Assembly: GCA_008632985.1 (NCBI GenBank)
Contig: QPGO01000233.1
Coordinates: 62,001 to 104,209 of the forward strand
Reading direction: 5' to 3'
Length of the DNA stretch: 42,209 bases
DNA from: Psammoneis japonica
Lineage: Eukaryota
Within the stretch, counting starts at the first letter, position 1. Each line of letters starts with the position of its first letter. The notes under the pieces were generated by a model. It made no database searches, was not told the origin of the DNA, and saw only the letters and a program-made list of their open reading frames with translations. Positions 1,283 to 34,814 of the stretch are shown here, in pieces. Both the position numbers and the translations under genes were made by a program.

Positions 1283-2079
1283 TCAATAGAAGGTTGATTC
1301 CATGCACACCTGACGTACACGCGGAAACTTGGATTTTGTTCGAGTATAGTATTCCAAACTTCAGTGCCTGCCTTAATCCGACAAAAGAACGTTCACCGAA
1401 GGCAGCGGAATCATCACAGAAAGTGCCGCTGGCTCTAGGACAAGGTCCGCTTGTCGCTTGTTGATCCATCTATTGCAGTACTCTGGTTTCGGTAGGGGGT
1501 TGATCAGAATTGCAAGCCACGACGGTGAGAAGAACTTTCTAATGAGTGTGCAGAGCTATAACTTTACATTACATGTTTCTACCAAGTCAGGCGTTTTTCG
1601 AACGGCTGCCTGATCCAGCGAGTTGAAGCGATCAGGGCAACACCTTGACGATGACGCCTAAAGGGGGAGCAAGCAGCGAGACGTTGACTTTTAGTGTACG
1701 GTACGAACGGTATTATAAACTAATCGGACCTAGTTTATCGATTTACGTAACATCAGTGTGGAGATGAACGCGACATGATGTGTAGATGAATTAGATATTA
1801 TTGAAAGAAATGGCAGACCAACCACACCACAGTCATTTTTCTGATGTATCACATGGACTTGAATGTTATGGCATGAATCAACAGTTAGTTGTAAAGACAC
1901 CAGCACCGACCTTTTACAACTTTGACGCACCCACCCTCAGATCCCGAGAGGGGAGGGCATCTGTCGGCACACTGTCTCGCGAGTAATACCAGAGAAGACG
2001 AGCTTGGGTGATGCATTGAAGCAAGCAATGATGTCAAGAGCACAAGTAAGATCTTACTTGCTGTGGGGTCGCACAGTTA

Positions 2080-4150
2080 GTGTGCTGTCCAGGAGCGTCT
2101 TCGACAACGACCCGGGGCACTGCGCGTGGTGAGAAGACAAAGTCAGAGGTGTGGACAAAAAGCTGTGGAATCAAAACAAGGTTCACAGGTGCAGCACCTG
2201 CTTTGTCCGCAGGAAACCACTTCCAAAGAAGTCCCAGCTCGCGTCTGTGACCGCCTCGGACATTTGCTGAATTGCACATGGGCAGAATCAAAGCGGAAGT
2301 TGCTAGAAAGCTGTTCTTCATGTTTGTTGTTTGACTTGAGAGTGCAAAGCATTGAACTGAATGAGGTTGTGTGCTTGATCTTGCAAAAAGGGTTCGGGGT
2401 TCGGGTCGCATTGCTGTGCATTGGCGGCGCAGCCTGCCACAGCACAGTGCACATGGCAGATGTGTGTCTCAAAATGCGGGATTGCGTCATGGCCGGATGA
2501 TGAGCTGCGCTCCATCGGATTGATTCAATGAAACTCTTGCTGTGCTGCAGACTGCTCTTTTGTGAACGATTGAGTCATCATTCTAAAGAGTGATTGTGAA
2601 AAGGTGCAACACCAGGTGTTGAGAACGAAACAGGTCTTGTTTTGCCCTGAGTGGCTCTCGTCTCATGGGCCACATGCTTGCAAGAACGGCGCGCTCAAAA
2701 CTCATTTTTGACAGAGTCGTGCCTTGCGGCACCGCGATCACCCGAAACTTCCTGATTGAACAGCAGAGCATGTGTCAGATGTTCTCGCCTTCTTCCTGGA
2801 TCAATGTCTTGGCATGGTCTCAATCACAACGGCAGACACTTCACTGCTGTCTCTCACCTGCCCCTGCAGTCTGTTCTCTCAAAGTTTGTCTGAGTTCACG
2901 ATGGCAGCATTTCGAGTTCACAAAAAGGCACAACACACCTTTCCTTTGCAGATTCGGGAGGACTCCAGGTGTTCTCGTTGGCACATGGGTGTGTTCAAGA
3001 GGAATGCACCAAGCACACTTAGACAAACCTTTCCATTCTTGTGCAAGTTGGGGCCAAACCTGACGATGCCTCCGCCGGTCGTTTGCAGCAGCACCACACG
3101 AGGTGAGTGGTGAGGGCAGTCATTGTTGACACAACTCTCTCAACTGTGGCTTAAAAAACACTGTGCAAGGTGACTTGACAAGAGCTTTTCCTTGTCATGC
3201 AAGAGCTCCATTTTTTGAACTGTGTGCTTTGTGTTTCGAATCTTTTGCCAACCATTCAAAGCCAATCTCTTTCAGTTTCTCAATCCAACATTGACCCATT
3301 TCACAGTTTCCCCGCTTCATCTGAGAGTGTCTTCTCCTCTGATTTGATGCCCACATGCCTGGAGAAGGGTCAGACTCGCAATGACAAGGAACACTGCAGT
3401 GTCCAACACTTCTTCCATGCTCTGCTGGTCTCTCCCACTGCGCTCGCCACTTTGCTTGCTGTTTTCCGGTCTTTTGTCTCTCCTTTTGAATGCAACCAGT
3501 GATTCCAAGATTTTTCAAAAGCTCTTGGCACCTGGGGTCGAGCTGGCTGGTCTTCATAAAGCTCCTTTGTCTTGACAACCAACCGGAAAGGGAAGCGCTT
3601 TCTCCGGCTTTGACAGCAACATTGCCCTGTTTGGTGTGTGGGTCCTTCAATTGCTTGTGCTTGCTTTCCCATGCCTTGTTGTCTTGTTCTTGGTGGCAAG
3701 GCACTTCTTTGTAGTTGGTGCTTTTCAACTGCTCCAACTGTTCCTTTCGAAGCATTTTGTGGTGGTGACGTTGACACGCAAGCCATCATTGAGACAAATG
3801 AGCACATTCTGGATCGTTTGGAAGCGACAAATGCCCATTCTCCACATAAAAGTCCTTGAGCTTCTGAAAGTCACTCGACCATGCTTCATTCCTTGATGGG
3901 TTGACTTTCATCAAGGAAGAAGTCGTCATGGTCGAGGCCCTTCGTGAGTCCTTGTCACGCTTTCTTCTCGAATCGTGTGATTGTGTGCACTGCTGTAAGG
4001 GCTGAGATGAGCGCGCGGATGAAGGAAGTGGTCAGTCCCGCACACTCATGACTCAGTACTTTCCTGCGGTGAAAATTGCGCAGAGATCCGGTGACAAAAA
4101 CGGTCCGATGACTTCCGCCAACAATGACATTGACTGCATGCGATGTGCAT
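2080..4150. other. TpA-depleted domain 1
   Basis: TA is nearly absent and CA/TG abundant. CpG is still fairly common. Normal TA frequency on both sides. Confidence 0.9.
3195..3890 (-). pseudogene. Helicase-associated (HA) repeat protein, decayed
   Basis: Three HA-like repeats: W..DFQKLKDFYVENGHLSLP...*WLACQR, WESKHKQLK...GNVAV...LSGWLSRQR, and W...GHCSVP...GMWASNQR...IEKLKEIGFEW. In-frame TGA near 3790. His/Cys occupy positions where Tyr is expected. Confidence 0.8.
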
Positions 4151-4452
4151 TCTATGTTCTTTAGCATGTGAATGAACCACTTTAAGCGTTGGATGCAGTT
4201 ACTTTGATGAACTTCGCCAAAGTGGCGCTTAGCACTGCTTTACGTACAAAGCTAGTCTCCCTTTGTATGTAGGGTATGGGATTTGTCTCCGTGTGTTAGA
4301 CCAACTACAGGTCGATATGATAATTACTCGTTTTCATTGAACGAGAACTATAGAGCATTTGCTTTTGTCTTTTTTTTTATTCTTTAATGTTATCCGGGAC
4401 CAGTGAAGGGATACGAGGTATCTTGATTGTTGGAGTTGGAGAATGGAACTTT

Positions 4453-8794: not shown

Positions 8795-9418
8795 CTATGC
8801 AATATCAAGGTCGCGTTGAAGTAACAGAGGCGAGCTTCCACGTAAGTTCTCGATGTCGTTCAAGCCAAAGATCAAAGAAACTGAATTCGGTGAACTCCGA
8901 TGGTCCAAGGTAGCAACGCGAGGCCTTTCAATATTCTGCGGGGATCCAAGCAAACGACATGGTCTTGGCTTCAATCTGATGATCTTCGGAGGAGGCAATG
9001 GTCTTGCCTCGGGTCTTGGTGATGAGTTGAATCTTTCACGTTGCTGAATGCTCTCTTGTTCGAAGAACTGCATTGTGCTGACGGATATAGAGAAAGATTC
9101 TATGCTATCCTCCCTTTCGAAACGACCTTGTCGTAGATCAGCTCCTCTGCAAGGAGGACTTGGGTAGTATCTCGACTGCTCAGCTCTTTTACTCTGCTCA
9201 ATTTCTTGTGGTGTAATAAGAACGAAGTCGCGCCTTTTTGTCTTCTTCGTTCGGACCAACGGATCTTCATTTCGGTTCAACAAAGAGTCGGCGCGATTTG
9301 GGGTGTGTTCTTCCATTCTACTAGGGATCACAAGCTGCGGGTAAGGGTGCGGCTGAAAACTGCCACCGATGTCCATGGCTTCTGTGAGAGCGTGATTTGT
9401 GTGTTCTTCGTTGCACAA
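8795..9418 (-). CDS. Hypothetical protein (DFVLITP.E / IRLKPRP motifs)
   Basis: 207-aa ORF with normal composition. Its motifs are shared with the neighbouring paralog at 10195-10872, which supports real coding. Confidence 0.65.
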   Translation of the reverse strand: MCNEEHTNHALTEAMDIGGSFQPHPYPQLVIPSRMEEHTPNRADSLLNRNEDPLVRTKKTKRRDFVLITPQEIEQSKRAEQSRYYPSPPCRGADLRQGRFEREDSIESFSISVSTMQFFEQESIQQRERFNSSPRPEARPLPPPKIIRLKPRPCRLLGSPQNIERPRVATLDHRSSPNSVSLIFGLNDIENLRGSSPLLLQRDLDIA

Positions 9419-10194
9419 GTTCGTTCAAGATTTATGCTGATTGAATTATGCCAATGTTAAGTATCGCGGATTCTGTTCGGATTCAGAATCTTTTTTCGCG
9501 CCAATGACTTTGACACGTAATCACTGGATGTCATTGAAGGGAAATTTGGAACTGCGAATGAGCTTTGAAGCGTGTAACGCCCGTCCTTAAATGAAAATAT
9601 CGGTTGAAACGCAAGTGGAACTTCATAGAATTCACTCCGATGTGGTACATACCTTACGCAGTTCTACGTAAATTCGAAAATTTGGGGAAAGCATGATGTC
9701 AGCTGGGGTCACAGCAAATACAAAACGCCGCGGTCGCGACGGAAGAAAACTTCATGACGAAGCCTGGGAGGCTTTGAGTGACCTTTCAAAGCGGATTTCG
9801 ACTCTTCCTTTCGATGCAATTTGTTAGTCGTCAAACGTGGATGAGAGGATCCATCCTGGTGGAGCTCGACGTGTCATGACATTCTGGATTTCAAATGCAT
9901 TGCTTGAAACAAGTTGAGTCCTGCGCGCGCACCCATGCAGCAGCGGAACAGTCTGATTGGAAATGCTTCGCAAATTCCTGGGATGACAAAATCATCACAA
10001 TCTTTGCTTTCTTCAATGAGCTTCCTGACCATGCAGGAGAAGCGGCATGTGTGTGTCATAAAATGGTGGACGGAGTGGTCAATTCCGTCGCCACTCTGAA
10101 TGAGCTCGCTGTCCATGCCTTCATGGCAGGCACCACAGAGGGAAAAACAAGATGTGAGAGAATTGTTTGTGCACGCTTGTGAAAAATGAAATGG

Positions 10195-10872
10195 TCAAGC
10201 TGCACTCAAGAGCCACGCGTCAAACTCCGATGTGACAATGCAGTCGTCATGAAGTGTTGTTGCAGGGCTTTCCCCACATTCGGGAAGATCAGACACCGAA
10301 GCAACTGCGCGAGGAGAAAGCAGATGGTCGCTCACACTTTCTCTACATGAGGTCACATTTCGAAACCTTTCAGCATTCAGCTGAGCTCCAAATGGATGAC
10401 AGGGTCTTGGCTTCAGTCTCACAAGCTTCAAAGCAGAGGGCTCCACTCCTTGTTTTGCTGACAATTTAAAACTCTTGGGATGGTCAATTTTCTGCCCTTG
10501 TTCGTTGAAGTTTGTGTTGGTGGCCAGCAAGGAAAATGTTTCTGTTCTCTTCCCTCTTTCGAGGTGACCTTGTCCTGCATGCAGATCAGAGCATAAAATG
10601 AAGACTGCAGTGGGACAGTCTCCAGAAAGATGCTTGGCTCTTCTGCTCCCCTCAAGTTCCAGAGGTGAAACAAGAACGAAGTCATGATGAACCTTGCTTT
10701 TCTTTGCAATCTTTTGCACTGGGGCCATGGAATCTTCAACATGATTTGGCAAAAACTCTGGATGGGGATCTTTGAAGTCTGCCATGACTTTCAGGTGGGA
10801 ATGCACGCCAAGTTTGATTTTCATTGTTTCGCACAAGCAAGGAGAAAATGGCTGTTGCCGGTCCTTTCTCAT
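10195..10872 (-). pseudogene. Tyr-free, probably hypermutated paralog of 8795-9418
   Basis: DFVLVSPLELEGSRRA vs DFVLITPQEIEQSKRA; KLVRLKPRPC vs KIIRLKPRPC. No Tyr in 225 aa. Lies within TpA-depleted DNA. Confidence 0.65.
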
Positions 10873-11356
10873 TTCTGTGTTGCTCAGATTGTGAGGGCAA
10901 ATTCACACAACACTCTGCCATGCAACCATTGTGCAGTTCAAGCTCAGCCCGGTCAGCGGTTTTCTTCTGCATGACTGACTTGCTTCGGATCATGTCCACG
11001 AGTGTCTTGGCAAGACAGACAGCACATGCTGAAATGTGCTGACAAACACCGGTGAAAAATGGCGGGAAATTTTTGGGTGTCAGGCCCTTGTGACGGATGT
11101 GACAAATGGCTGTGGATCTTCCTTGGCATCATCTGTGTCACAGTGAATGCCAAATGAATCACCACAAAGAAAAGTGCATCAGCCAATTGTCTCAAATCTT
11201 TTCTGACGCATGTCTGGGATGTGTGCAAGTTCTGCGCTGCTGCATGTGCCATTGGCAAAAACTGCGCTTTTGTCTGCCAAGACCTGCAAGATTGCAACAG
11301 ACCTTGGGTCTCTTTGGCAGCCCTGTGCTGCTGTGAGGAGTTGGAGAAGGTGATCA

Positions 11357-12390
11357 AAGCGTTTGTGAAACAGGTGCTGCTCTGGGTGTGGCCCCACTGG
11401 CCTGGAGTCTAGGCTGGTGAAACTGGAGCGACCAGAAATTGGGCTCCAGTGCAGGAGCAAAGTCTCTCACCTCAACACAAACAGCGGTGCAGTGCTTGGA
11501 GGCAAGATTGCTGCCGCAAATCTAAAACTCAAAGGAGGTCAAGGAAAGCAACCTGAAGAAGCTGCAATGGATCCGGTCCTCAGCAGAGAGAACACACCAC
11601 CTCTGCTGGAGACTTGCCAACTCTACATGCACGGTTTCCTTTGACAGTCCATTGCCACCACCTGTGCAATCCTTTCCTGATTTGTGAAATGGCTCAGTTT
11701 GTGTGGCACAAAACAGTGTGAGGTGTTGCAGCAGTGCAACAACCTGTTGCTGTGACAAGTCACAAGTCAGCCCTTCTCTTCATTTGTTCGTGGACATTGT
11801 CAATGAATTTCTGTGGTGGCTTTGTGCAGTGCTTTTGATGCAGTGTGTGCATCCCTGCGGCCAGTTGCAACTCGAATCACCCGTGCAGGTGATTCCCATT
11901 GCTTTGTTGCACAGACAACAAAAGGCCAATCCTTGCCATCGTTGCAGCACAACGGGTTTGTTCTTGATGTCTTCGTTGTCAGAATCAGAAGCAATGTTGA
12001 GGCAGTCTGTCACCATTTTTCTTTCCAGTCTTTGCTGACCTGTGCATTCTTGGCTGATCCCAGTCCCTCGTCTTCCCAGTGATCAACTGCAATTCATCCA
12101 TCAATGCTGCTGGGGTCAGATTTCTTGTTGAACACAAAGGCCATGCTTGCAGGTTGACTGTGAATGGGAGTTGGCACCCAAGCATTTGCAAGCACAATGA
12201 GAAGACGAAGGCTGACAATCACTTTCCACAAGAGCGACTCTTGACTCGGTGGCAGAATTGACACAACTTTGTTCATCAGTTTCTTTTGTTTTTTTTGAAG
12301 TCTTTGCTGCGAAGCAGTGGGACAATGTGTGCGCGGCAGAGCCAATGGATGTGGATCTTGTTGATTGTCACTTTGGAAGGATGCAAGTGC
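11357..12390 (+). repeat. About 1-kb direct duplicate of 18914-19948, TpA/CpG-mutated copy (includes a pseudogene of 19320-19841)
   Basis: Co-linear match, e.g. tgtgacaagtcacaagtcag at 11751 and 19311. Protein MVTDCLNIASD / NWPQGCTHCI here vs MVIDYLNIASD / NWPQGYAHYI in the other copy. Confidence 0.95.
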
Positions 12391-12504
12391 AACAGCATTT
12401 GACAAAGAATTGCATCAATCAACGAAGTGTTGCCACTTTGTTTTTTAGACTTTCTTTGACCAGTCAATGACAATCTCACCGCATGCCATGTTGTGTGCAT
12501 CAAT

Positions 12505-15028
12505 CGTGTGTGTCAGGGATGACTCAATGGAAATGTGTCAGTGGAGCCACCAAGCAATGCACATTTGCCACAACCCCAAATGTCGAACATGCACCATCCA
12601 ACTGTCTGGAACTTGCAGCCATGTGTTGATCTTCAGCCTTGAAAATGGCAAGTTTTTCGTGCAGTGATTTTTGCCAAATGTTGAGAAATCATGATGGCAA
12701 ACCTCTCTGCTGTGTCTCTGACTCTCTCAGAGCATTGCTGAGACAAGCTCACTCTCTTTGATTTGCAGTGAATGACACCTTTGAAAGCTTTTGCAATGAC
12801 CATGACAAGCATGGTTGCGCACTCTGATGCTGCTTGCCACAAACAAGACAGGAGCGCCCATCCCAATGTCAACCTTTCCAAGGAGAAAGGCTTTGTCCCA
12901 CTTGGATGAGACAACAAGAAGGTGAGTTGACCACATGTTGTGCAGCAGTTGTGCAGAATTGCTTTCGTGGCTTGCTCTCTCCATGTCTGTCTCTCTCTCT
13001 CTTCTGTTGTGTTGTCGCTGCATCTGGTTTCTTCTCATTGTCTCACCATCACGGTTTCATTTGATCTGCAATGACTGCATGCTCTTGAGTCATGTCTCAC
13101 TTGTTTTGACAATGAGGGGGCTCTTGACAAATGCTTCAATGGGCTCCATGGGCTGGAGATTCTTGAAGTCAAGGCCACGGAGAAAGGTCAAGCCACACAT
13201 CTGAATCTCCAAGAGAAAGAGGAGGGAGCATGCCCTGTCTGCTGGGGCGGCAACAAGCAGAAAGTTCTCAAGCATGCTCCTGTGAAAAATGTGAGTTGAT
13301 CATTCAGTGCAGTGCCTTTGAGTTTTGCTGCTTTGCTGTGATCGGATTGTCCTTGTCTCATCGTCGCTTCCATCAAATTTTGCCTTTCCCGCTGGTTCTC
13401 ATCTCATGCATCCCAAATGATGGGCCATTTGTGCCAGAGGTTCTTGAGCATAAGAACAAGGAGACGGTTCAAGCAGATGCTCCAAAGAAAGAGAAGTGAT
13501 CCAGTTTCAACAATGGCTGGGGAGAGCAAGAAGTGCTCGAGTGTTCTCCTCTAAAAAATGCAGGCAGTCATTCATTTGGCATGTCGACCACAGCATGAAA
13601 GTTTCAGATTGTTTGCTGTGATTGATTCTTTTCATCTCACCATTGTTTCAATCTTTTTGTCTTTTCCTGCAGGTCCTCGTGTCTTGCATCCCTGCTTTGG
13701 CCGCTGGATTTTCTGCACTCAAGCAGCGCAATGCAACTGTGCCAGAACGTGAGGACAAGGAGACGGCTCAAGCAGACACACCGATTCTTCAGAAGAAAGA
13801 GAAGTGACCCAGTTTCAACAATGGCTGGGGAGAGCAAGAAGCACTTGAGTGTTCTCCTCTAAAAAATGCAAGTCATTCATCTGGCACATCGACTGCAACA
13901 TGAAAGTTTCAGATTGTTTGCTGTCATCAATTCTTTTTGTCTCACCGTTGCTTCAATCTTTTTGTCTTTCCTGCAGGTCCTCACATCCTGCGTCCCTGAT
14001 TTGGCTGCTGAATTTTCTGCACTCAACTGGTGCAGTGCAACTGTGCCAAAACACAAGGACAGGGAGACAGCTCAAGCGGACACGCCGATTCTTCAGAAGA
14101 AAGAGAAGCGACCCAGTTTCGATGATGATGGCTGGGGAGAGCAAGGAGCACTCGAGTGTTCTCCTCTGTAAAAAATGCAAGTCATTCATCTGGCACATCA
14201 ACTGCAACATGAAAGTTTCAAATTGTTTGCTGTCATCAATTCTTTTTGTCGCACCATTGTTTCAATCTTTTTTGTCTTTTCCTGCAGGTCCTCGCATCCT
14301 GTGTCCCTGGTTGGGCCGCTGAATTTTCTGCACTCAACCGGCGCAATGCAGCTGACGTGTTCCAGCCCCAGGTGACGCACAAAACAACAATTGGATTTTG
14401 AGTGTAATTTATGTGTGTTTTAGTGCACACAGCATTTTAACAAAAATGCTTGGACGGATTGACTTTCATGGGCTTCTAGAGTGTGAACATTTAAACAGTT
14501 TTTTGAGGGGCACTCAAATCCTCATGGGACGTGTGTCACAAACTTCCTCAGTGGACTCAGCGCTGATTGCACGTCAGCAGATTTACACTGAGATTTTTTT
14601 GTAGGTAGAAAACCTGCCAAGTAGCATCGTAGAAAGACACATTTAGGTGACATCCAAATGACGGCAACATTTTCGCCGAAAATCATCCGTTGTGTTGCGA
14701 GTCTTTCAACGCAATGAAAAACATGGACAGCACAACAACAATGACATTGCAACACTCACACGAGTCTTGTTGGTGTGTTGCAAAACATTTATATTTGTTC
14801 AAATCTATACTTTTGGTGGTGAAAGTTCGATCGTAAGTTGGGGACCGCGCAAAAATCGCGCAAATGTCGTTTTTGTGCACGACTTGGTTCGCGTGCGGCT
14901 GGAACACGTCAACTGTGCCAGAACACAAGGACAAGGAGATGGCTCAGACGGACACTCCCATTCTTCAGAAGAAAGAGAAGTGACTCAGTTTCGACGACGG
15001 CTGGGGAGAGCAGGAAGTGCTCGAGCAC
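12505..15028 (+). pseudogene. Copy 1 of a gene made of tandem ~300-bp exon+intron modules (split by the MITE)
   Basis: Co-linear with 32830-34600. Repeated unit ...cctgcag|GTCCTC...GGCTGGGGAGAG..GAAGTGCTCGAG..TTCTCCTCT.AAAAAT|gcaagt. Many TGA stops at former CGA codons. Confidence 0.8.
14355..14909. mobile_element. Non-autonomous TIR element (MITE-like), about 555 bp
   Basis: Perfect TIRs ACGTGTTCCAGCC (14355-14367) / GGCTGGAACACGT (14897-14909), with weaker subterminal symmetry. Flanked by CAGCTG / CAACTG. It interrupts a repeat module whose intact copies read ...gcaatgcaactgtgccagaa. Confidence 0.85.
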
Positions 15029-15394
15029 TGATCAGGACCCGCAACATCATCACCGGATTCGGCGTTTGAAGGACTTGTGCCAAATGACTGACATCTCGTG
15101 TTGCAACAACCGGAGTGACGGCCTCATCACTTGCATCAGGGATACCAGTGACAGTGTCAGCGGGATCAGTGTCCTGGAAAGTGGTTGGTGACGATTCCCG
15201 AGACATCGTCATGGTCGAGTCGATGTGACGCTGTGTGTGTGTTGTGAGAAAAATGGGCAAAAATAATAGGTCATGAGTTTTTTACAAAAATCACAGCGGT
15301 GGCCGCGCGAACGTAGGGCTACCGGTATGGCCCAAAAGCGTCGTGTGTTGTTGGCATTTATGCCGAGGCTCTCCCACAAATGTTTCCCCAACCA

Positions 15395-16254
15395 ATGAAT
15401 AGCAATTGCAATGAGAACTTTGCACAGCTTGCAAGCGGTGTTGACCGAAACGAACCCAAGTGAGGTCGATGAAATCAACATCTTGGCTAAAGAAATCGAT
15501 GTCGAAGGTGTCCAGCAACTTGTTGCTCCCAAAGCTGTCTCTCCTTCATTTGGCTCACAATCACATTGGGGACGACGGTGTCAAGTGTTTGTCGAAAGTC
15601 ATCCCTTCTCTTTTTCTGCTGGAAACGCTCATCCTGGAAGAAAATGGCATTGGCCCTGAGGGTGTCAAGTCTTTGTGCGAAGTGCTGGAGCGGAACGCAA
15701 AAATCAAAGTTGTCAACCTTGAAGACAACGCACTCGGAGATCGAGGTGCAGAATGCATTGGAAAAATGTTGCGAAAAAATCGCAAACTGACAACGTTGTG
15801 GTTATCGAATTGTCGCATTGGACAAAAGGGAGCTAAAGCGTTGGCCAGTAGCGTGCGAGAAAACTCATCCATTGTTACTCTTCGTCTCGATGGCAACAAC
15901 ATTGGAGACGGTGGTGCAAGAGCCCTCGGACAAATGCTTTCGCAAAACGACACAATCGTACATGTGCGTGTGTCGCGTGCCTCTTTTGGAGATGAGGGGG
16001 AGGCGGCCCTAGTGGACGGCGTGAAGCAAAATAGGAAGGTTGATCCTTACTTTTTATGGTACGGCATTGATGAGGAGCTAGTTTCTGAGATTGAAAGGGA
16101 CCGTGAGCTGTTGCGGCGCATTTTGCTGTTGTTGCGTCGTGATTCCGTTAAGGATGGTATTTGGGCCAAGGTGTTGGCACGGGTTGGCGAAAACCACAAC
16201 CTCCGTTACCTTGTTATCAAGGCCAAACCAGAGATAGTCAGGAAACCAAAATGA
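15395..16254 (+). CDS. RNI-like/NLRC3-like leucine-rich-repeat protein; 5' part appears frameshifted
   Basis: 28-aa LRRs (L.L..N.IGD.G...L...L..N..L). C-terminal W.KVLARV...YLVIKAKP. LRR-like N-terminal pieces (QLASGVDRNEP; EVDEINIL..EIDVEGVQQL) lie in two other frames upstream. Confidence 0.8.
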
Positions 16255-16820
16255 TTCTCTTTACATGACATTGGGAACAGCGGGTTGGTTCCGAATTCGA
16301 GGAGCATGATGTACAGTATATGAGACACAACCATAGCGTCACTTGGTTTTTGTTATTTTTGCAAATAACCGACAACAATTTAGTAAAACAAACCATATGT
16401 ATATGTTTTTGTTTCCACCAATGCCCACTCTTCGTACGGCGTAGGTAGTCACTAGCAACCGATGCTCTATACTTCCGCGCGTACAAACCGACCTCTGAGT
16501 CGACTGGACTCATTGGCTTTGCGGCTTGTTGTAGTCCATCTATTTTTTGGAATGCACCTCTATAAGGCCTCTTTTTCAATGATGCAAAACAACTTTTAAC
16601 AGTGTTCTGATGGAGTTCACATTCTTGATTATTTCTTTTATGATTGGTGCCTCCGGTTTCCCAAATCATTCTTTACACACAAAAAGAGCTTATGCGTTGT
16701 GCCTTGAATAAGAAACGTAGCTGCCGCGACACGAACGCACCTTCTCTCTCTCTCTTTCCAACGATACAATATCTTCCTCCCATTCTCCTTTATGACTTCT
16801 CGTTCAATCCATTCTGTACT

Positions 16821-17080
16821 TCAGCCGCTTATGTAGTCGAGCTTCATATTCTTATTCTTGTTTCTTGCACACATTGCCCGCGCGTACTGATCCGACAAAT
16901 TTGCACTGGACACACGCATAATTGGTAATACTCTCAAGACATCCCTTAGAGCGGCAACAAAGAAATGATTCCAAAAGGTCGTTCCATCGACTCGATAGTT
17001 CAACAGACACACCGACATGTTAGCACCTTCTTCAATCGATCCCCAAAACTTTTCCAACGCCTTGGGTCCTTGAAGGAATC
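16821..17080 (-). pseudogene. AUREO1a: Aureochrome-1a-like LOV domain C-terminal remnant
   Basis: FLQGP..., MSVCLLNYRVDGTTFWNHFFVAALRD, then after frameshifts ITNYACVQCK and SDQYA, matching the diatom aureochrome 1a C-terminus as I recall it. No GRNCRFLQ core and no bZIP recognisable. Confidence 0.75.
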
Positions 17081-17896
17081 ATCGACCACTCTGTAATGGA
17101 CGGGGTTCAAGAAAGCAGCTGATGTCATCCGCTAAGAGATCAGCTCCAGGCTGTTGAAGATTGAAGCATAGAAGCTCTTGATCTTTCATTTCGTCCCCAC
17201 TTTCACGGGGCACAGTATCCTCAGGCCTACTAAGGCCGCGAACGTTGTTGAGTAACAGTAGCGAAGAGTAAAAGTGCACCTATCGTACGGTCTTGGGTAC
17301 GCATGTTTCTGAATAAGTATCTCGTCGGTGTACCCGCCAGCCGCCACATTCAGGAGCTTATCTTCTTGGAACTCCAAAATCAATTTAATAGCATTCGTAG
17401 TCGCATCATTCAGGACAACAGATAACGAAAGTTTCAATGTTGGAGCTTGCGATGGCAAGTGGCAAGGCGGATGGACTAGTAGTAGTTGGCGGAAGAAGAG
17501 ACGTCGGTGGTGCAGTCGGGTTGAATGACTCGACCGCTGCAGTGTTTTTTGCCTCATTCAATACCGAGAACATCTTAGCAGACTTCACACTAAAACATTG
17601 ATCGTCTCGGAATATATAAGCTGTGGAAAGTCTGAGAGATCGTAAACGGTGAGTCTTACTAGCTCACTTCGCGAAAAAGGCAATCATATTCCTTACCCAA
17701 AACAATGGACTCAATGATGTTACTCGGAGTATTCACAGTCACCCCCAGTCGTCTACGATTATTCAACTTCCTTTGAAATTCTGCAGCGAGATGCAGGTTG
17801 AGAAATTGTCCATAAAGCAGCGCGATTTTTTTATTGATTTTTGGAAACGCGGCGAGCAACCGGAGGAAGCACGACTGAAAGATCGCTTCAAGCAGG

Positions 17897-18880
17897 ATGA
17901 TTCGAATCGCGTTTGTGATGTATGCCGCGCTGCGAGGAGTCGTCGCTCGTCGCGTGATGCGTTCGCCATTATTTGTTTCAGCTCTTGCAGTCCAACAGTC
18001 GGATGCTCATCATAACAAAGGCACCATAAAACGAGAAGTAAAAGAAGGAATGAAGAAGACAGCAGGCAAGAGAAAGCGTGAGTCGGACAGCGCAGGAGCA
18101 TCCGATCCAGTTGAAACGACGATCGAGACGACGACAAGCAATGCCAAGAACGAAACAAGAAGGAACCATCAACCTCGACGGAAAGGCGTGCGGATAAACC
18201 AAACAAAAAGACCACAGCAAGAACAACTCTTCCATCCGACAGTCCAGTTTATCAAAAGATCCTGCAGTCCTCACCAAGGCTTGTCCACATCACATGTCCT
18301 TGTCATCCCATCAAGAACGCGAGGAATGGGCCAGGCGATTGTTGACCACACTCGTGGCCAAACATGGACCCACATGAAAAGCACTCAAGCACTGAGAGAT
18401 CATGTGCGGTCTCTTATCTTCAATCTCAAAAAGAATGGTGACAATCTGGTACTACGCTATTCTCCTGAATCTTTGGTGGAACTGTCAGCAGAACAGCTCG
18501 CGGTTGGCACCAGTGTCGAACGACAACGAGAGACGGCACGTTAGAAAGGTTGGAAACCTCCTCCTCCCGAGTCCAAGCTTGACCCCGAGCGTAGTGCATG
18601 GTATACATCGTCCGACCTGCAAACAAAACGTCTAGTCCTAGTCTTGCGAGATGAAGCAACACACAGAGCGTACTGCAACTGTTTTGGAAACAACGCTACA
18701 CCAAGAGTTGATGTAATTCTCCATAACAGCATTTTCACTGTACCAGGTCGAGTGGATGCGTATGTATCACCTGCCAATACCATGGGAGACATGGATGGCG
18801 GTATTGACAAGGCATACGCGGAGTACTTTGGATGGTCCTACGGAAGACCGTACCATTCACCAAATGCAACTAGCTATTGA
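17897..18880 (+). pseudogene. TFIIS central-domain-like segment in frame (across one TAG) with a truncated macrodomain
   Basis: VRSLIFNLKKN...SPESLVELSAEQLA, TAG at 18542-18544, then the same frame continues KGWKPPPP...LVLVLRD...DAYVSPANTMGDMDGGIDKAY (macrodomain signature) and ends prematurely at 18880. Confidence 0.7.
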
Positions 18881-18913
18881 CCGAATCAAGGGAGACTATG
18901 GTGCCAGGCTTCC

Positions 18914-19948
18914 GAAGCGTTCGTGAAACGGATGCTACTCTCTAGTAGGTATGGTCTACTAGTGAAAATAGAGCGACCCGAGATTGGGTTCCAACACAGG
19001 AGCAGAGTCTCTCGCCGCATCACAAACGGTGGCGCAGTGCTCGGAGGTAAGATTGCGACCGCAAATCTAAAACTCAAGGGACGTTACTAAAAATGGAAAG
19101 TCAAGGAAAGAGACCTGAAGAACCTACAACGGATCCGGTTCTCAGTAGAGAGAACACACCACCTCTACTGGAGACTCGCCAACTCCATATGTGCGGGTTC
19201 CTTTAACAGTCCATCACCACCACCTGTGCAATCCTTTCCTGATTTATAAAATGGTTTAGTTTGTGTAGCATAAAATAGTGAGATGGTGCATCAATGCAAC
19301 AACCTGTTACTGTGACAAGTCACAAGTCAGTCCTTCTCTTCGTTTGCTCGCGGATATGATCAATGAATTTCTGTGGTGGCTTTACGTGGTGCTTTTCGAT
19401 GTAGTGTGCGTATCCCTGCGGCCAGTTGTATTTCGAATCACCCATGCAGGTGTTCCCCAGCGCTTCGTCGCACAGACGACAAAAGGCCAATCCTCGCCAT
19501 CGTTGCAGCACAATGGGTCCGTTCTCAATACCTTCATTATCCGAAGCAATGTTGAGGTAGTCTATCACCATTTTTCTTTCTCTGGGATCCCAGTCTTTGT
19601 CGACCTGTGCGTTCTCGGCGGATCCCGGTCCCTCGTCTTCCCAATAACCAACCGCGATTCGTCCATCGATGCTGTTGGGATCAGATTTCTTGTTAAACAT
19701 AAATGCCATGCTTACAGGTTGGCTGTGAATGGGAGGTGACGTCCAAGTATTTGTAAGCACAATGAGAAGGCCGAGGCTAACAATCGCTTTCCACAAGAGC
19801 GTCTCGCGTCTCGGTGGCAGCACAGACACGATTTTGTTCATCAGTTTCTTTTGCTCTTTCTCACGTCTTTACCAGTGGGATGTTGCACGTTCGGCCGAGC
19901 CAATTGATGTGGAGCTCGTCGATTGCCACTTCGGAAGGATACAAGTGC
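18914..19948 (+). repeat. About 1-kb direct duplicate of 11357-12390, TpA-retaining copy
   Basis: Co-linear alignment by eye; TA and CG retained where the other copy has CA/TG. Confidence 0.95.
19320..19841 (-). CDS. Hypothetical protein with a CxxC + HxxxxH putative metal site (likely start MFNKK...)
   Basis: AVGYW...VIDYL...WRGLAFCRLC...G...YNWPQGYAHYIEKHHVKPPQKFI; intact frame, and a decayed duplicate exists in the window. Confidence 0.65.
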   Translation of the reverse strand: MNKIVSVLPPRRETLLWKAIVSLGLLIVLTNTWTSPPIHSQPVSMAFMFNKKSDPNSIDGRIAVGYWEDEGPGSAENAQVDKDWDPRERKMVIDYLNIASDNEGIENGPIVLQRWRGLAFCRLCDEALGNTCMGDSKYNWPQGYAHYIEKHHVKPPQKFIDHIREQTKRRTDL

Positions 19949-23307: not shown

Positions 23308-24168
23308 TTATTGAGATATGTCTGGCTTTTCTCGGAGCAAATAATAGATGAGATCAGTCTGCTCGCCTTTCAGTAAGAGAGTCCGTACCAGAACATGCGG
23401 CCACAATGCTTGTGATAAAGAAATGTCTCCAACATGTTTACGTCCCGCCATGTTTCCGATGAGCAAGTAGGCAATCTTTGCCGGCACTTGTTTCCAGAGG
23501 AAGATGTGTCGGAGCGTAGTGTTGCGCTACACCATGAGCTCAAAGGTAGTTTCCAGCGGTTCGGTTTTTCGAATTGGATTCAAATACAAATCCAGCGACA
23601 ACAGTGACTCGTTTTCTTCTAATCCCCGAGTCAGGGCCACAGCGCCCACATTTGTAATGTTGTTCTTGCGCAGTGAAAGGCTAGTCAGCGACTTGTTTGT
23701 CGTCAACGCCTCGCTCAAGGCAATGGCACCTTCATCTCCGATATCATTCCCGTTCAACACCAAACTCGTCAAAAGCGACTTCTGCGGTTGTTTTAGAGAT
23801 CGTGACAAGGACATGGCACCAACCGATGTGATTTGATTGTATGAAAGGATCAGGACCCGCAACATAACATTCGGCGTTTGAAGGACTTGCGCTAAGTGAC
23901 TGATATCCTCGTCAGTAATTTCATTTCGAGACAAGACCAGTCTAGCCAGCCGTGTATGAGGCAAAGCGTTCGCCAAGACACGTACTCCTCCGCCACCAGT
24001 TGTATTTCGACGAAGGTTCAAATCGCAAAGGGCAGTGTTGCCTTTGAGCGATCGTGCCAACCCCCCAACGCTCGAAGCATCAATGTACGTATTGTCCAAG
24101 TTCAGTTTTGATATGCGTTCATCGTTCTTCTCCAATCGATCACAATACGCGAACAAAAGAAGGCTCAT
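23308..24168 (-). pseudogene. RNI-like LRR protein with a premature TAG at 23527-23529
   Basis: LRRs such as LVLNGNDIGDEGAIALSEALTTNKSL. After the TAG the frame continues RNTTLRH...GNMAGR...LWPHVLVR...DLIYYLLREKP to TAA at 23308, the usual C-terminus of these diatom LRR proteins. Confidence 0.8.
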
Positions 24169-25499
24169 GGGATGTACTGTATATGTTTTAGCGACTGAGA
24201 GTAAGTGCTGCGGCGTCACCAGTTGAAAAATCGTCACTTTCTGCGTTCATCGTTTTCTGCAACTGAAACCGATACTGATGCTTTGAGTCTCTGCAAACCA
24301 AACCTACTCAGTGATAACTCTAGAGCCCTTCATGAGCCTTTCTAAGCAGCTGGAAGGATTGCAATTGGAACTCCGTTGTGTCACAAACGCAAGACGTGAT
24401 GCCCATGCCGACAGCAAAAAACGCAGCTATGGGTGAGTCGAATAAGTCGATTGCACTCAAACTTTCAAAACGGCATGTTGCACTTATGATGTGTCTCGAC
24501 ATTCAGAACATGGCAAACATCGTTGGGTCGACGTATCTTTCATGGGGGATCTTTTTCTACCGTTGTGTTATAAAGAGGTTGATACATTGGTTTGGTTTCC
24601 GGGGGGCTTCGGTTGCGACACACGGCATGATAAACAAACTGTTGCGTGCCTCGACTCCTCGTGACTCAACACTCAACTGCGCGGGACGTTTAACACGTAA
24701 CACTTGAATGGTCGACAACGCTGCGGCGGCAAGTTCTTTCTGTTTTTCTCATTTTATATCGTTTTCTTACTCACTAAAGATCATTGTTGCGTTTTGTTAC
24801 AGCTTGAAAGGTGGATGGATCGTCTCCTGCGGTCGATCATGGTGTCTGTTGTGTTGGCATGTTTTTCAAGTCGTTGGTGCCAAAGCGCATCCGTTTAGGA
24901 GCTTTGTGCTTCATCCCACTCTACATCCTTTGGTGAAGATGAGGCGGTGGCTCAAGCAGTCGAGGTCTCTTGCGCGTAGCGTGAGTCCCTGGTTTCGGCG
25001 TTTGATTTTCTTTGTTGTTCGCACTTCGGCACACGTCCTCTAACACGGCAAGGGAAATGAACGACGTTTTGGACCGGTGGTTCTTAATTCTTGCTATCGG
25101 TTCCTGCTCATATTCTCGTGTATTTGCTTCTGGCGGGCTTTTTCACTGTTCAAACGATTGTGGACGTGCTGAACGTAGGGGAGTTGGGCGGCGCGAGCTG
25201 CTGTCACGGTCGCTCCTTTTATCATCGCTTGCGGAATGGAAAGGCTAATTTCGACCGCTTTGAGCTTGCTAACGATTTATTTCAACTTCCGCAGTGACAC
25301 TTTCTTCCCACCATTCAACGTGATCTGGACACATTTCAACACGTTTTGCTAGTGTTGCATGTCCGAAGCGACAGCAGAACTGTCGAGAAGACCGTACAGC
25401 GGCATTTTCTTCAGCATCCTTGAGCAATGAAGCAGCAGATAATGTATATAGATGACTCATGGTTTGTCACTGTTCTTTATAGTGTTTGTTGACCCGTCG

Positions 25500-26800
25500 C
25501 GTTGGACAGGCAGAGCAACACCCAACTCAGGATTTGTCACTCCATGACTCAGATGATCCAGAATCTGCAACTTCAGAGACTCCAGAGGGAGCAGAGCTTG
25601 ATGAGCTCAGCAATGACAGTGACGATGAATTGCCCTTGTTGATCATCATGACTCACATGAAGATCTAGATGTTGGTTTTGATGAAGCAGAGCCTGTGCCA
25701 CCAGCTCCAAATGCTGCTGCTGCTCCCACTCGGACTTGCAATGACCACACTGTCAAGAAACCAGATTGCATCTTCATTGAGTCCATGAAGGCCAAAATCT
25801 GCACCCCACCCAACAAGTCACACTGGCTGCACATGAAAATTCCAAATGCTTTGTCAGGTCAGAGACATTGAACAAGCAGTTTTTGATGACACTGCATTGG
25901 GAAAGCATCACAAATGCCCTCAGATCAAAAGACTTGCGTGCTGTGATCAAAATCTTTGACAAAAATGCTGGTCAAGAATGTGGGCGATGCACTCAAAGAA
26001 ATCCAACTTGGGAAGAAGGAACAAGTGAGCCTGATTGCACAGCCCATCTCCACCAGGCTTGTGACATCAAAGTTGACTCCCTTGCCACCAAGATTGGATG
26101 AATGTGCTCCCACCCACTTGGGCCTTTGCCCTGATTGATTCATCCAAAAATGTGATGCCAATTTTTTGTCTGTGGAGACAAGGAGCAGCTGGAAGTCATT
26201 GATCATCTGATGCTTCAGCTCTGGTTGTAAATCAGACAGCAGCCCAGCTTGTGGTCATGCTGTCTCAAATTTTGGAGATCTCTGCCAAGCAAGTCAATCA
26301 TGTCACTGCTTTTGCACATGCTCCCATCAGCACGGATCCCAAATGGGGTGCCATGATGCCCAAAGAGTGGGGGTGCACTGGCGCATGTGTGCAAGGATGC
26401 TCCAAGCCTGACAAAGCACTGAAGCTCAAGAAGACCATTTGCAATCTCAAACAAGGACCGTGCAATTTTTTTCCTGCAGCTGAAATCAAAGCTTGAAGCT
26501 GGGCTTCAATCGCAAAAGGACGTGGGCTCATGCCTCTTTGTGTCTGACAAGGTCAGAGTGCATCAACAAGGAGGTCAAAAAGTTCAAAATCAGTGGTGGT
26601 GTGTCCTTCAAAAACTCAGATTCTGCTGCATTTTCTTTTGGGCATCCATGTCAATTGTGATGCCAACAATGGCTCAACCAAGCTGACCCAGTGTGCCTGG
26701 TGGCCAAGTGCGCCATTGATGCTCTCAATGCAGGTGATCTTCCAAAGGCCCCAACACCTGCACCAGCGGCTCTGTTGGTCTGCGTTGGTCAAGGATGCTG
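25500..26800 (+). mobile_element. Ty1/Copia (CoDi-like) reverse-transcriptase remnant 1
   Basis: WMNVLPPTWAF (26096), CGDK, KQVNHVTAFAHAPI and KALKLKKTICNLKQGPCNFF (consensus LKKSLYGLKQSPRNFF); many frameshifts. Confidence 0.85.
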
Positions 26801-27699
26801 ATGGAGACCCACAGAATGGAGCCCCCAGTTGTGCCAGTGTGGCTGGCATGCTCCAGTGGTGCCTCTGAGGCGCCCCAGGCCCCCAACGTTGTCACCTGTG
26901 CAGCTGCTGGCCCAGCAGCCAGGTTTGTTTTTGGCCCAAGCTGCTCACATGAGCTGGCCCTCATGAGGATCAGCAAACTCATCAGGGGCTCACTTGAGGA
27001 AGAAGGTTCAGCCCCCAAGCCATCTGGGGTCTTCAGCGCCAATTTTTTGTCAGTGCTGCTCAGAGTTTGCCGGGGCTGTGCCCTCACGAAGACAAGCAAG
27101 ACCAGGCTTGTGTCAAGAGTCAATCAGGACTTGTGGCCTGCATTTCAAACTGTCCTGTCATTGAGTCTGGCAAGCTTGCACTCAAGATTGCTCTCTCCAC
27201 CATGGAGGCAGAGTGCCGCCCCCTCCCCAGTTGTGCCAAAGCCGCCCTTCCCTCCCTTTCTCTGCACCACGCAAGCCACTTCTCAAGGTGCTGGAGCTGG
27301 TCTGGGAGCTGTCGAGACCACCAAGACTGCCTTGAGAGAGGGCAATGCTGGAGCTTTAATTTTGGCCAATGTGGAACCTGGACAAATTGCACCAAGGTTG
27401 TCCCAGCTCTGCTCTGTGGTTGGCAGCTTCTTTGTTCAAGAGGCAGTGTCATTGCAGTGCGAGCTCATGCATGCTCATGCACACAAAAATTTCGCGCTTG
27501 CACCAAATTGTTTTCCCATGGGAAAGTTGTGCTGGAACGCTTGCAGACAGGAACGGTCAGAAAGAAGATCAAGCAGTCTACGTGGTGCTGAGTGCATTGA
27601 AAGCAAACTGTTGGGTTGTTGTTGTTTGTTTGTCATCCCATTGTTTGCCAAGCAACCAGCCCTCTGGAGGCAGCAAGACAACCAAGCAAACACACCATC

Positions 27700-28830
27700 A
27701 TGGACGACGGCAAGCACAAGCACACGACCAGACTGGGGCGTCGCGCTTGGACTCCTCTGCTCTGGGATGTCTGTCTCACTCAGACTCTGCTCTGGGATGT
27801 CTTGCTTGGACTGGACAATGACTCACCCACACTGCTTTCTCACTCCATCTGATGACAGGATGTCAACCTGTTGGATGGATTGCTCTGAAAACACAGGAGG
27901 AAGTCGTCACTGATGCCATTCAGTTTGTGGAAGAAATCATCACCACCAATGATTGCTCAGACAAAGAACTTGCAGAGTTCTTTTCAGAGTGTTCTCAGCA
28001 CCATCATGGCTGCAACAAATGCCAGCAAGCATTCTGTTGAGCACACGTGGCATCCAAACAGTCCAACAATTTGGAACTTGCACAGGACATCCAAATGTGG
28101 TGTGAAAGCCACCCTGAATTCATGTCGTGGCACCAGGTGTGTCAAGGATCCTACACGGCGAACCAAGAGCTTCCCAAGTGGGACAATCATGAATCGGTGA
28201 AAGCAGATGGAGTGGTCAATCACAAGCCTGCGCCGTCCGTGGAATCATGGCTGCTCCTTCTCATCAAGCAAAGCCACACCTGGCTGGAGAACAAGAAAAA
28301 AGGATGGGAGGAAGGCCTTCCTCATTGTGGTGCACCAATCTCAGACTTTTTCAACAAGCATTGCATGACAGCTGGTTCCTTTGTCACACGGGAAGTGCGC
28401 TCCAGGATTGAGACGGCCCTCAAGAGCGCTCCGGAGCAAGAGGAGCTTGAATTTTGCGTCCCCAGTGACACCACTGCCAACAATGACCCCTCATCCCACA
28501 GTGCGGCCATGTTGCCTGCTGAGTCCCCCGCAGTTGTTCCCATTGCACAAGATTTGCGTGGACGAGGTTCAAGACATGAGTCAAGCTAAGATCGGTTTGC
28601 CATTTTTGGTGAGCACAAATCACCCTGATTTTCTTTTTCTGGCTGGTGACCCTGCTCAGGCTGTGGCCCAGGGTGTTGACTTTTGTTTCAAGGTGGTCCG
28701 TTCTGTCATTCACATGATTTTTGAAGGCAGGGAGAAGATTGAGCATTGGCAAAAACTCTGCCACAACTTTTGCAGCCATGAGGGGATGTCCTGAAAGTGG
28801 CCAATTCTGCACTGGGCTGTCTTCTCAAGG
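27700..28830 (+). pseudogene. UvrD-like SF1 helicase fragment (TRANK1/LBA1-like)
   Basis: ICVDEVQD (Walker B), FLAGDPAQAVAQGVDFCF, LCHNFCSHEG (consensus L..NYRSH.G); frameshifted. Confidence 0.7.
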
Positions 28831-29104
28831 CCTTTCCCACAGCAGCATTGAAGCTGGAGCATGATGCGGGACTTGTTCAGGGTGAGCTTTAAGTGTGCAT
28901 CAAACTGTTGCCTTTTGCCATTCTTGAAAGCAAGCATCACTTGTCCATCTGTTGGCTTGTTTTTCCTTGTTTTGTTTGAAAGGACTCCAGCCAGGACTGC
29001 TGACCAGTGACCACAAGGAGCTGCCCGAGCTTCTTTGCATTGCAGACACAAAAAAAGCAAAAAGAATGCTCTTCAAACCCTTGGACCACTTCAAACAGTG
29101 TTGA

Positions 29105-29190
29105 ATGTTGGCATCTGCTTGAGCCGCCCAGCAAGCTGTTGGCACCTGCTCAAGCCACCTGGCAAGCTGTTGGCATCTGTTTGAGCCACC
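29105..29190. repeat. About 31-bp tandem repeat, roughly 3 copies
   Basis: tgttggca(t/c)ctg...(g/a)agcc..c..gcaagc repeated. Confidence 0.7.
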
Positions 29191-29929
29191 TTGCATGATG
29201 CAGCGTGCACTTGAGCCGTCTTGTTTGAAATGGCATGAACTTGAGCTGCACCACATGATGTGACATTTTCCTGTGGAAACATGGACAAAAAATCAAAGGA
29301 AAACAAGAAGTTGAGAAAACTAAAAAATGCATTGAATCAACAGATTAAATCAAATGCTTTGGAGTGATGGGATCATCTTGCTGAGAATGTGAGAGAATGA
29401 AGAAACAAATTTCGGCTCCAGAGAATGTTTTCATTTGTTTTCATCATGAGCCAGTTTTTGGGTTGACAACAGCAGGTCCAATGGCATCAACACAAAATTG
29501 ACAATGCTCATTTTCAGCCATGATGACCATTGTTGCAGGTGCTTTGTGTTGGTGATGTTTGTGGTGGTGGGAGAAACTGGAAACTGGCTGTTTCCGTCCA
29601 CACACATGCTGCTCACTGCAATGCTGTGCAATCACCTGTGCTCCTGATGTGAGCACTGGTGCTAACTGTGATGCTGTGCAAGTGCCTGTGCTCCTGATGT
29701 GAGCACCGGTGCTGCACTGTGCCCCAACTGGGCTCTGTTTGTTTTGTGCTTTGCAGTGTGAATTTGAAATTTTTGACATTTTGGCCTTTTTCTGTTGTTT
29801 TCGCTTGACGTTTTGGCAAGCGTCCCGCAGTGCTGCAGCGTGCACATGTGTTTTCAAAATCACAACAATCAAAGCCAGACATCTCTGCAAAACACTGTTT
29901 TTAAAATCACAGACTCAAGTGGTGGATTG

Positions 29930-31180: not shown

Positions 31181-31299
31181 TTGACCAAGACTTCAGCTTG
31201 TGCACATGATTCTGTGTGCTCTTGGTTCCATGCGTGGTGTGCAATGCAGTTTGCTTTGAAGCCACTCAGCTCACAAGAACAACAACAGCAGTGCTGACA

Positions 31300-32540: not shown

Positions 32541-32829
32541 CCTTTAGAATGGCGATTGTCACCCCAGCGTTGTGCAACTCTGTGCAGGAGGATCACAACA
32601 GCCAAATCAGTTGCTTTGTCATTGGCTCTCCACTGAAGCCAACTTCCACAACTCTGCTGGAGACACACCTCAAGAACAATGAGGAGCAGCTTTTGTTTGT
32701 TGGTTTTTGAAAGCGGCACTTCTGGCAAGTTACTTCGAAGTAGAAGAGATTGTGAGTTGAAAAAACGCTGTGTTATGATGTGCCGCATGCAAAGTAGAAG
32801 CATTCTGTCACACACACCAACTGGAGTGT

Positions 32830-34600: not shown

Positions 34601-34814
34601 CCGATCTTGCCTTGGGCAGTGGCTCCCAAAAGGGCACGAGTGAGTGACGAGGCATCCTTGCCAAGATGGTTGTCGTTCCCTTTCTTGAAAAAGGTCAGAT
34701 CCAGCAGTTGCTTGTTTGCAGGATGCTCGTCCAGGTTGTCATTCTTGAGAGCACAGACACTGGTGCCCAATGCACATTTCTCAAATGCCAAACAGATGTT
34801 GCTGGTCTTGAGTG

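Follow-up and report, generated by a model that had tools for sequence, protein, structure and literature searches.

What kind of process can remove nearly every TpA dinucleotide from one copy of a duplicated gene and spare the other copy? The question is raised by a stretch of 42,209 nucleotides of contig QPGO01000233.1 (assembly GCA_008632985.1, positions 62,001 to 104,209 of the forward strand), which we call the window and in whose numbering all positions are given below. Two copies of a segment with a small gene of the DUF7919 type lie in it, one near 11 kb (copy A) and one near 19 kb (copy B), and copy A has lost almost all the TpA sites that copy B keeps. In our opinion, copy A was probably damaged by a mutator of TpA that is limited to certain regions and depends on sequence context, with a slower decay of CpG in addition. 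A process of this kind has been described in Bigelowiella natans (Mettrop et al., bioRxiv 10.64898/2026.01.13.699255, 14 April 2026).

The two copies are diverged duplicates with 84% identity in a local alignment of 1063 columns, which comprises 847 matches, 158 mismatches (124 transitions and 34 transversions) and 58 gap columns. The original prediction was based on a pair of 40-mers, 19241-19280 and 11679-11718, in which six of the seven differences had been placed on the six TpA sites of copy B, three of them becoming TG and three CA. This count is reproduced exactly, and tabulation of the full alignment by dinucleotide extends it to the whole duplicate. Copy B has 36 TpA sites, only two of which are retained in copy A; the other 34 read TG (18), CA (15) or CC (1). 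Expressed per base, 35 of the 73 TpA bases are changed, whereas bases that belong to neither TpA nor CpG are changed in 79 of 819 cases (Fisher p = 6.6e-15). The enrichment of TA to TG or CA changes in this pair is real and far beyond chance. It had also been claimed that CG becomes TG or CA, and the example quoted for this was located at 19464 and 11903. Among the 56 CpG sites of copy B, 43 are altered in copy A (21 to TG, 13 to CA) and 13 are retained, with 44 of 113 CpG bases changed, again far more than in the bases outside both dinucleotides (Fisher p = 6e-14). Both strands show the CpG change, as is predicted for decay driven by 5-methylcytosine (5mC). The TpA or CpG bases of copy B carry 79 of the 158 mismatches.

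The open reading frames (ORFs) confirm which of the copies is the broken one. The ORF of copy B, 173 amino acids (aa) long and on the minus strand, is intact and contains GYAHYI; the corresponding residues of copy A are GCTHCI, and its ORF is broken across two frames, 12094-12414 and 11780-12082. The protein of copy B has a weak Pfam match to DUF7919 (E = 3.7e-5, below the curated cut-off), and seven homologues were found elsewhere with E values from 1e-43 to 8e-59 and identities of 51-67%. In this ORF the observed/expected ratio (o/e) is 0.50 for TpA and 1.06 for CpG, which bears out the view that only one of the two copies was mutated.

The direction of the changes can be judged from related proteins. 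Since three metagenome relatives (L001-L003), with 40-50% protein identity, are too distant for use at the level of single bases, the differences were polarised by codon against seven outgroup proteins. The copies differ in 65 codons, 46 of them non-synonymously; at these 46 the outgroups side with copy B in 30 cases and with copy A in 5, the remaining 11 being uninformative. All five Tyr codons (TAY) of copy B correspond to Tyr or Phe in the outgroups and to Cys or His in copy A. Likewise, the CGN codons 61, 116, 122 and 164 correspond to Arg in the outgroups and read TGA, CAA, TGT and CAC in copy A. On the agreement of the outgroup proteins with copy B, TA and CG are the ancestral states, as the original prediction had it for TA, and copy A is the derived, mutated member of the pair.

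The damage reaches well beyond the duplicate. Two-state segmentation on TpA density, complemented by composition in 500-bp steps, delimits three blocks (Table 1) that together take up 18 of the 42 kb of the window. They hold 62 TpA in total, where about 703 would be expected from the density outside. In the DNA outside them, o/e is 0.54-0.66 for TpA and 0.87-1.02 for CpG. Within the window, TpA loss is confined to these discrete regions, and their edges are sharp, the transition being completed in less than 100 bp. GC content is unaltered (47.6-49.6% in the blocks, 46.8-48.8% outside), and the biggest gains in the blocks are those of CA/TG (1.44-fold) and GCA/TGC (1.90-fold). DNA that lies outside the blocks and in no ORF retains its TpA (452 in 9226 bp, o/e 0.44-0.97); hence, the pattern is not that of a genome-wide pressure on TpA which selection would mask. 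Copy A accounts for 1034 bp of the 4685 bp of block 2, which is 4.5 times longer than the duplicate and has different edges. To the left of the duplicate the block runs on for 1.6 kb, through sequence for which the window offers no second copy. Since copy B was spared and the duplicate fills only part of the block, a trigger by homology is disfavoured, and the positional or chromatin trigger proposed in its place is plausible.

Table 1. Mutated blocks, duplicates and gene relics located in the window
Feature	Position	Strand	Basis
TpA-erased block 1	2079-4152	.	9 TpA in 2074 bp, o/e 0.07; CpG o/e 0.60
HA (helicase-associated) domain relic, block 1	3198-3785	-	Pfam HA E = 1.5e-18
Left flank of block 2 with extra TpA>TpG in run X1 (variable edge)	9048-9463	+	Differences between run X1 and window
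TpA-erased block 2, contains copy A	9720-14404	.	13 TpA in 4685 bp, o/e 0.04; CpG o/e 0.42
Copy A, hypermutated frameshifted pseudogene of DUF7919 gene, with flanks	11357-12390	-	Alignment to copy B, split ORF, derived states against 7 homologues
Second internal duplicate, block 2 copy, with 304-bp tandem exon-intron units	12509-14301	+	Aligns to 32832-34609, 84% identity
Copy B, unmutated duplicate with intact 173-aa DUF7919 gene (19320-19841)	18915-19948	-	ORF, Pfam, homologues, TpA and CpG o/e
TpA-erased block 3, ends at N gap 36475-36861	25481-36474	.	40 TpA in segment 25481-36892, o/e 0.06; CpG o/e 0.36
UvrD-type helicase relic (motifs II and III), block 3	28546-28788	+	Residues 60-140 of ORF 28369-28794
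Second internal duplicate, block 3 copy, TpA-free, most CpG kept	32832-34609	+	CpG o/e 0.68-0.89 in 33001-34500

The outcome at a given TpA depends on its neighbours. Changes on the two strands are interleaved along copy A, and the flanking base decides on which strand a site is altered: NTAC has become TG in 8 of 8 cases and GTAN has become CA in 8 of 9. When A>G rates are taken from the alignment of the two copies, folded onto one strand and sorted by context, 17 of 18 TAC are changed, followed by TAT (7/18), TAA (6/17) and TAG (4/17). The rates outside TpA are 0.14-0.17 for NAC, 0.09-0.12 for NAT and at most 0.03 for NAA and NAG. Survival of 4-mers was calculated as their density in the blocks relative to that outside; it ranges from 0-0.04 for ATAT, ATAG, ATAC and GTAC to 0.28-0.31 for CTAA and TTAA. 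Read from these contexts, the rule of the mutator is an obligatory 5' T and a preferred 3' pyrimidine (T-A-Y).

Loss of CpG accompanies that of TpA in the blocks and can be separated from it. At the rims 2079-2300 and 9720-9900 TpA is gone and CpG is normal, and at 36001-36474 TpA is lost without loss of CpG. The same is seen on a larger scale at 33001-34500, where TpA o/e is 0.07-0.13 and CpG remains much higher (Table 1). TpA is thus lost where CpG is intact, so that there are two separate processes, and the erasure of TpA is the faster or the earlier one. A second internal duplicate, with one copy in block 2 and the other in block 3, gives a view of the CpG process, both copies being without TpA: at 57 positions a CpG in the block 3 copy faces TG or CA in the block 2 copy, and 10 show the reverse. 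There are also 23 discordant sites with TG in one copy and CA in the other, which bear on whether TpA was lost before or after this duplication; about 17 of them, by our estimate, could be due to CpG that decayed independently. CpG survival in the blocks varies with the flanks, from 0.20 for ACGT to 1.06 for GCGC. From the lack of depletion of GCGC we infer either a strong dependence of CpG decay on the flanking bases or the formation of new CpG from CAC/GTG through A>G changes.

The nature of the mutated DNA was approached through its residual coding content. In the 18 kb of the blocks there are 87 stop-to-stop ORFs of at least 90 aa, a number explained by the fact that DNA free of TpA has TGA as its only stop. 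In a Pfam scan of these ORFs only the HA domain was above threshold; three weak matches were also obtained, among them one to UvrD that later proved real. For the HA relic of block 1, a single homologue was found, P0011, with 63% identity, and 9 of 10 of its Tyr residues are His or Cys in the relic, as 7 of 17 of its Arg are Gln, Cys or Trp. For the helicase relic of block 3, a full HMMER search gave 313 relatives with E <= 1e-3, of which 43 reached E <= 1e-10, whereas a word-indexed search for longer relatives had returned none. Ten long relatives were scanned; all of them have the UvrD-helicase domain, four have ankyrin repeats and one has a MYND finger. The relic reads His and Cys at two Tyr/Phe columns (Tyr in 4/6 and 5/6 of the aligned relatives) and Cys, Cys and His at three Arg columns (Arg in 7/7, 7/7 and 6/7). 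All three blocks, with copy A in block 2, hold relics of cellular-type genes in which Tyr is replaced by His or Cys, and Arg by Cys, Gln, His or Trp. The features identified account for all but about 14 kb of the blocks. Two scans of viral contigs, which reach close relatives only, returned no relatives, and no further paralogues within the window were found by self-tblastx. The long block ORFs 26738-27913, 10198-10902 and 35031-35837 look like non-coding translations.

The second duplicate contains tandem units of 304 bp (13485-14354 and 33948-34544) that resemble modules of an exon plus an intron, a polypyrimidine tract and CAG preceding each exon. One unit in block 3 retains a GTAAGT-like donor and the remaining units read GCAAGT, which implies that the mutator destroys splice donors too. 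A unit of the same type just outside block 2 adjoins an ORF with an LRR_6 domain.

A second data set gives some information on how recent the process is. Contigs were rebuilt independently from a public run (run X1), which may derive from the sample of the assembly itself or from another isolate, and 40 of its 385 differences from the window were listed. In these contigs, 9927-11795 is recovered with 11 differences and 11846-12784 with 6. Word depth over the blocks is about 60, equal to that of the flanks, and block 2 is covered at a single-copy depth of about 64. The block pieces differ from run X1 at 18 of 3405 bases and the normal pieces at 5 of 5111 (p = 3e-4), a roughly fivefold excess inside the blocks; of the 17 differences listed for block 2, 12 exchange TA or CG for TG or CA, or the reverse. 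To the left of this block, at 9001-9574, there are 9 differences; 7 coincide with a TpA in the window, and A>G on the plus strand accounts for 7. The edge of block 2 seems to lie further left in run X1, and recent activity on TpA is suggested. Another run (X2) has no cover over 9668-15003 and 25676-27009; this is not evidence of silence. In one of its contigs, 74 bases bounded by GT..AG are missing at 24431-24506, an intron just outside the LRR_6 ORF 23527-24246; on this ground the run, labelled 'DNA?', has the look of a transcriptome.

Some further observations concern the surroundings of block 2. At its right edge, 14349-14915, lies an element that resembles a miniature inverted-repeat transposable element (MITE), with 27-nt terminal inverted repeats (85% complementary) around 513 bp; its interior has a TpA o/e of 0.37 and normal CpG. 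The bin that contains it (14337-15003) has a summed word depth of 16,255 in run X1, against about 60 in the flanks, which indicates a very high-copy element. It was probably inserted after block 2 had been mutated. To the right of this element, the segment 14916-16000 has 15 TpA in 1085 bp (o/e 0.22), with CpG at 0.95 and TpA-free runs of 227 and 314 bp, and it includes the start of the intact LRR_6 ORF 15445-16254. It may be a partly affected rim of block 2 that reaches a live gene, or it may reflect the ordinary codon usage of an LRR gene. On the other side, 8907-8995 in normal DNA and 10349-10437 inside the block share 48-54% identity over about 26-29 residues in several frames, and may be a further small duplicate pair with one member mutated. 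In the window as a whole, the Pfam domains include HA, LRR_6, MYND and SET. There are ORFs that run without interruption for 844, 724 and 426 or more codons, and as the genes of B. natans are intron-rich, the window probably belongs to another organism; in the unlikely case that it were B. natans, the locus would be one of the TpA-depleted clusters already described there. In the ORF of 724 codons (38497-40671), Pfam recognises nothing but an S-adenosylmethionine decarboxylase domain (residues 209-288, E = 1.1e-8).

Taking these results together, copy A would be a dead paralogue of the small DUF7919 gene within one of three delimited mutated domains, in which a fast mutator, active on either strand, would have left TG or CA in place of almost every 5'-TA-3'. 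The chemistry that we favour is enzymatic deamination of adenine in DNA, which would need a 5' T and favour a 3' pyrimidine, and the resulting inosine would be copied as G. The mutator would act in place on a bounded domain, probably silent and methylated, and homologous pairs as such would not be its target. CpG decay would come later, through deamination of 5mC, in the older core of each domain. The process appears to be near saturation at this locus, where it would strike copies of cellular-type genes. In the sequence context that it uses (5' T, 3' C), the agent resembles a DNA adenine deaminase of the ADAT or TadA-like type.

Several points weigh against this reading. What the sequences show are the spectrum and its polarity, the arrangement in domains, the flank rule, the separability of TpA and CpG loss and the excess of differences from run X1 inside the blocks; the enzyme, the chromatin trigger and the silencing are parts of it that we infer. 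At TpA, A>G on one strand and T>C on its complement leave identical traces, and either base may have been the damaged one. The suggestion of recent activity comes from one run, one contig and seven sites in 9001-9574. Pfam found no viral or transposon family among the 87 block ORFs, which thus lend no support to a logic of defence against foreign DNA shared with B. natans. The recognisable relics are of cellular type here, whereas in B. natans the targets are viral. The preprint itself is not peer reviewed, and its main text is silent on CpG and on flanking bases (bioRxiv 10.64898/2026.01.13.699255).

How do other explanations fare with the same evidence? A defence that recognises duplicates by pairing, in the manner of repeat-induced point mutation (RIP), would have mutated copy A for being a duplicate. 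It could draw on the fact that block 2 is a mosaic of duplicated pieces, belonging to both pairs of Table 1, and on the relics of multi-member gene families in all three blocks. Nevertheless, the partner B is untouched, block 2 extends beyond the duplicate into sequence without partner among the copies in the window, the direction is reversed, TpA being destroyed instead of made, and the main hypermutable region in B. natans is single-copy (bioRxiv 10.64898/2026.01.13.699255). We consider a trigger of this type unlikely. A similarly low probability is given to a chemistry on the thymine side, in which a dioxygenase of the TET/JBP type would convert the T of TpA, and perhaps the 5mC of CpG, into oxidised bases of the 5-hydroxymethyl or 5-formyl kind that mispair with G (or A), so that T>C and C>T would come from one class of enzyme. 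5-Formyluracil mispairs with G; T>C at R-T-A fits the data equally well as A>G at T-A-Y, and two palindromic YpR targets would be united under one chemistry. One shared step is at odds with the spatial uncoupling of TpA and CpG loss at the block edges and at 33-34.5 kb, and, among the matches listed, the literature on 5-hydroxymethyluracil deals with dinoflagellates in every case and never with diatoms.

The composition could also have been acquired before integration, as the signature of a virus or through editing of a single-stranded or RNA intermediate. Block edges sharper than 100 bp do look like insertion junctions, and the targets in the preprint are integrated viruses (bioRxiv 10.64898/2026.01.13.699255). 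Editing of one strand, however, does not fit changes that are interleaved on both; the relics go back to copies of cellular-type genes, and their changes are derived and damaging; the sites at which run X1 and the window disagree cluster within and next to the blocks, which points to change in place; and the two viral scans, with their reach of close relatives, gave nothing. We think that a foreign or pre-edited origin is very improbable. A retrocopy edited by ADAR was rejected on the interleaving of the two strands and on TAG being the least affected context. An artefact of sequencing or assembly at modified bases has the smallest chance of all and is hardly credible. Some long-read base callers make systematic miscalls at modified bases, and no library type is recorded for run X1; yet its independently rebuilt contigs, at a word depth of about 60, reproduce the two pieces of block 2, the copies differ by transversions and gap columns as well, and coherent Tyr to His or Cys patterns appear in three gene relics. 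A regional TpA mutator acting in place, followed by CpG decay, is the explanation that we prefer.

If this explanation is right, the window shows the near-complete end state of the process, and the internal duplicate together with the outgroup proteins gives a directly polarised spectrum. With a T-A-Y preference to go by, fewer enzymes come into question as the agent. The process can strike copies of ordinary cellular-type genes, beyond viruses, and, should the organism belong to another lineage than B. natans, the mechanism is older or more widespread than thought. It is conceivable, though we would put it at somewhat less than an even chance, that a second eukaryotic lineage, diatom-like and distinct from B. 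natans, has a TpA-directed adenine deamination which works as an 'inverse RIP'. Such a system would mark bounded domains, erase TA within them and creep outward at their edges, with decay of methylated CpG following, and both duplicated cellular genes and invaders would be retired by it. It would amount to a natural editor of adenine in double-stranded DNA with a T-A-Y rule, and a natural deaminase of such specificity, if true, would be of interest to those who build base editors. There is a practical consequence for annotation, too: DNA free of TpA, and hence of TAA and TAG stops, yields long spurious ORFs in all frames, which annotation pipelines will miscall.

Among known systems, RIP of ascomycetes has in common with the present case that dense, dinucleotide-specific transitions kill duplicated genes and leave blocks of skewed composition. 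RIP makes TpA from CpA, whereas TpA is destroyed here, GC content is unaltered and there is no AT enrichment. RIP is, moreover, triggered by homology and usually mutates both partners; in the window copy B was spared, and a duplicate of 1034 bp stands against a block of 4685 bp. The CpG part of the signature is shared with 5mC decay, in that CG becomes TG or CA on both strands and CpG flanked by AT is hit harder than CpG flanked by GC, but this accounts for the slower half of the signature only.

For the faster half, there is a likeness to deaminases of tRNA. The natural substrate of TadA and of ADAT2/3 is A34, which follows the invariant U33, and the loop of bacterial tRNA-Arg reads U-A-C-G. 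The T-A-C preference seen here fits that loop. The substrates of eukaryotic ADAT2/3 mostly have a purine at position 35, which fits a T-A-Y rule less well. ADAR shares the A>G change and a preference for a 5' U; it prefers a 3' G, however, the least favoured neighbour here, and edited RNA would mark one strand and not both. Among engineered editors derived from TadA, a TadA-8e variant is described in a review as editing A within 'YAC' (PMC13109818), in agreement with the same T-A-C preference.

The closest parallel is that of B. natans. In its mutation-accumulation lines, the main text of the preprint (bioRxiv 10.64898/2026.01.13.699255) assigns 231 of the 302 nuclear mutations to two regions of integrated viral DNA, at a regional rate of about 6e-7 per site per generation; all but one of the 231 are A>G or T>C, and each of those 230 falls on TpA. 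The large region is single-copy, which speaks against a homology-driven process there, and transcriptionally silent. Genome-wide, 124 clusters of 1-kb windows with a depletion of TpA and an enrichment of CpA+TpG were found, and its authors proposed an ADAT2-like adenine deaminase acting on DNA. With their thresholds, 15 of 42 1-kb windows of the present stretch pass, including runs of 4 (10001-14000) and 7 (26001-33000). The change of TpA to TpG or CpA on either strand in discrete regions and the long-term loss of TpA with gain of CpA+TpG in clustered 1-kb windows are the same in both cases, as far as the preprint describes them; a larger number of differences inside the regions, between isolates there and between run X1 and the window here, may be a further likeness. 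Trinucleotides, pseudogenes and diatoms are not mentioned in its main text, and literature searches for a TpA signature in diatoms returned nothing relevant; other searches gave only papers on fungal RIP. Region-limited hypermutation of TpA has so far been reported in that one preprint on one alga, and we read the window as a further case. The two also differ: TpA makes up 0.35% of dinucleotides in the present blocks, compared with 3.3% in the nucleocytoplasmic large DNA virus (NCLDV) region of B. natans, and here CpG decay accompanies the loss of TpA and a 3' pyrimidine rule is visible. With respect to the main text of the preprint, the new details provided by the window are the saturation, the flank rule, the uncoupled decay of CpG and the relics of cellular genes as targets.

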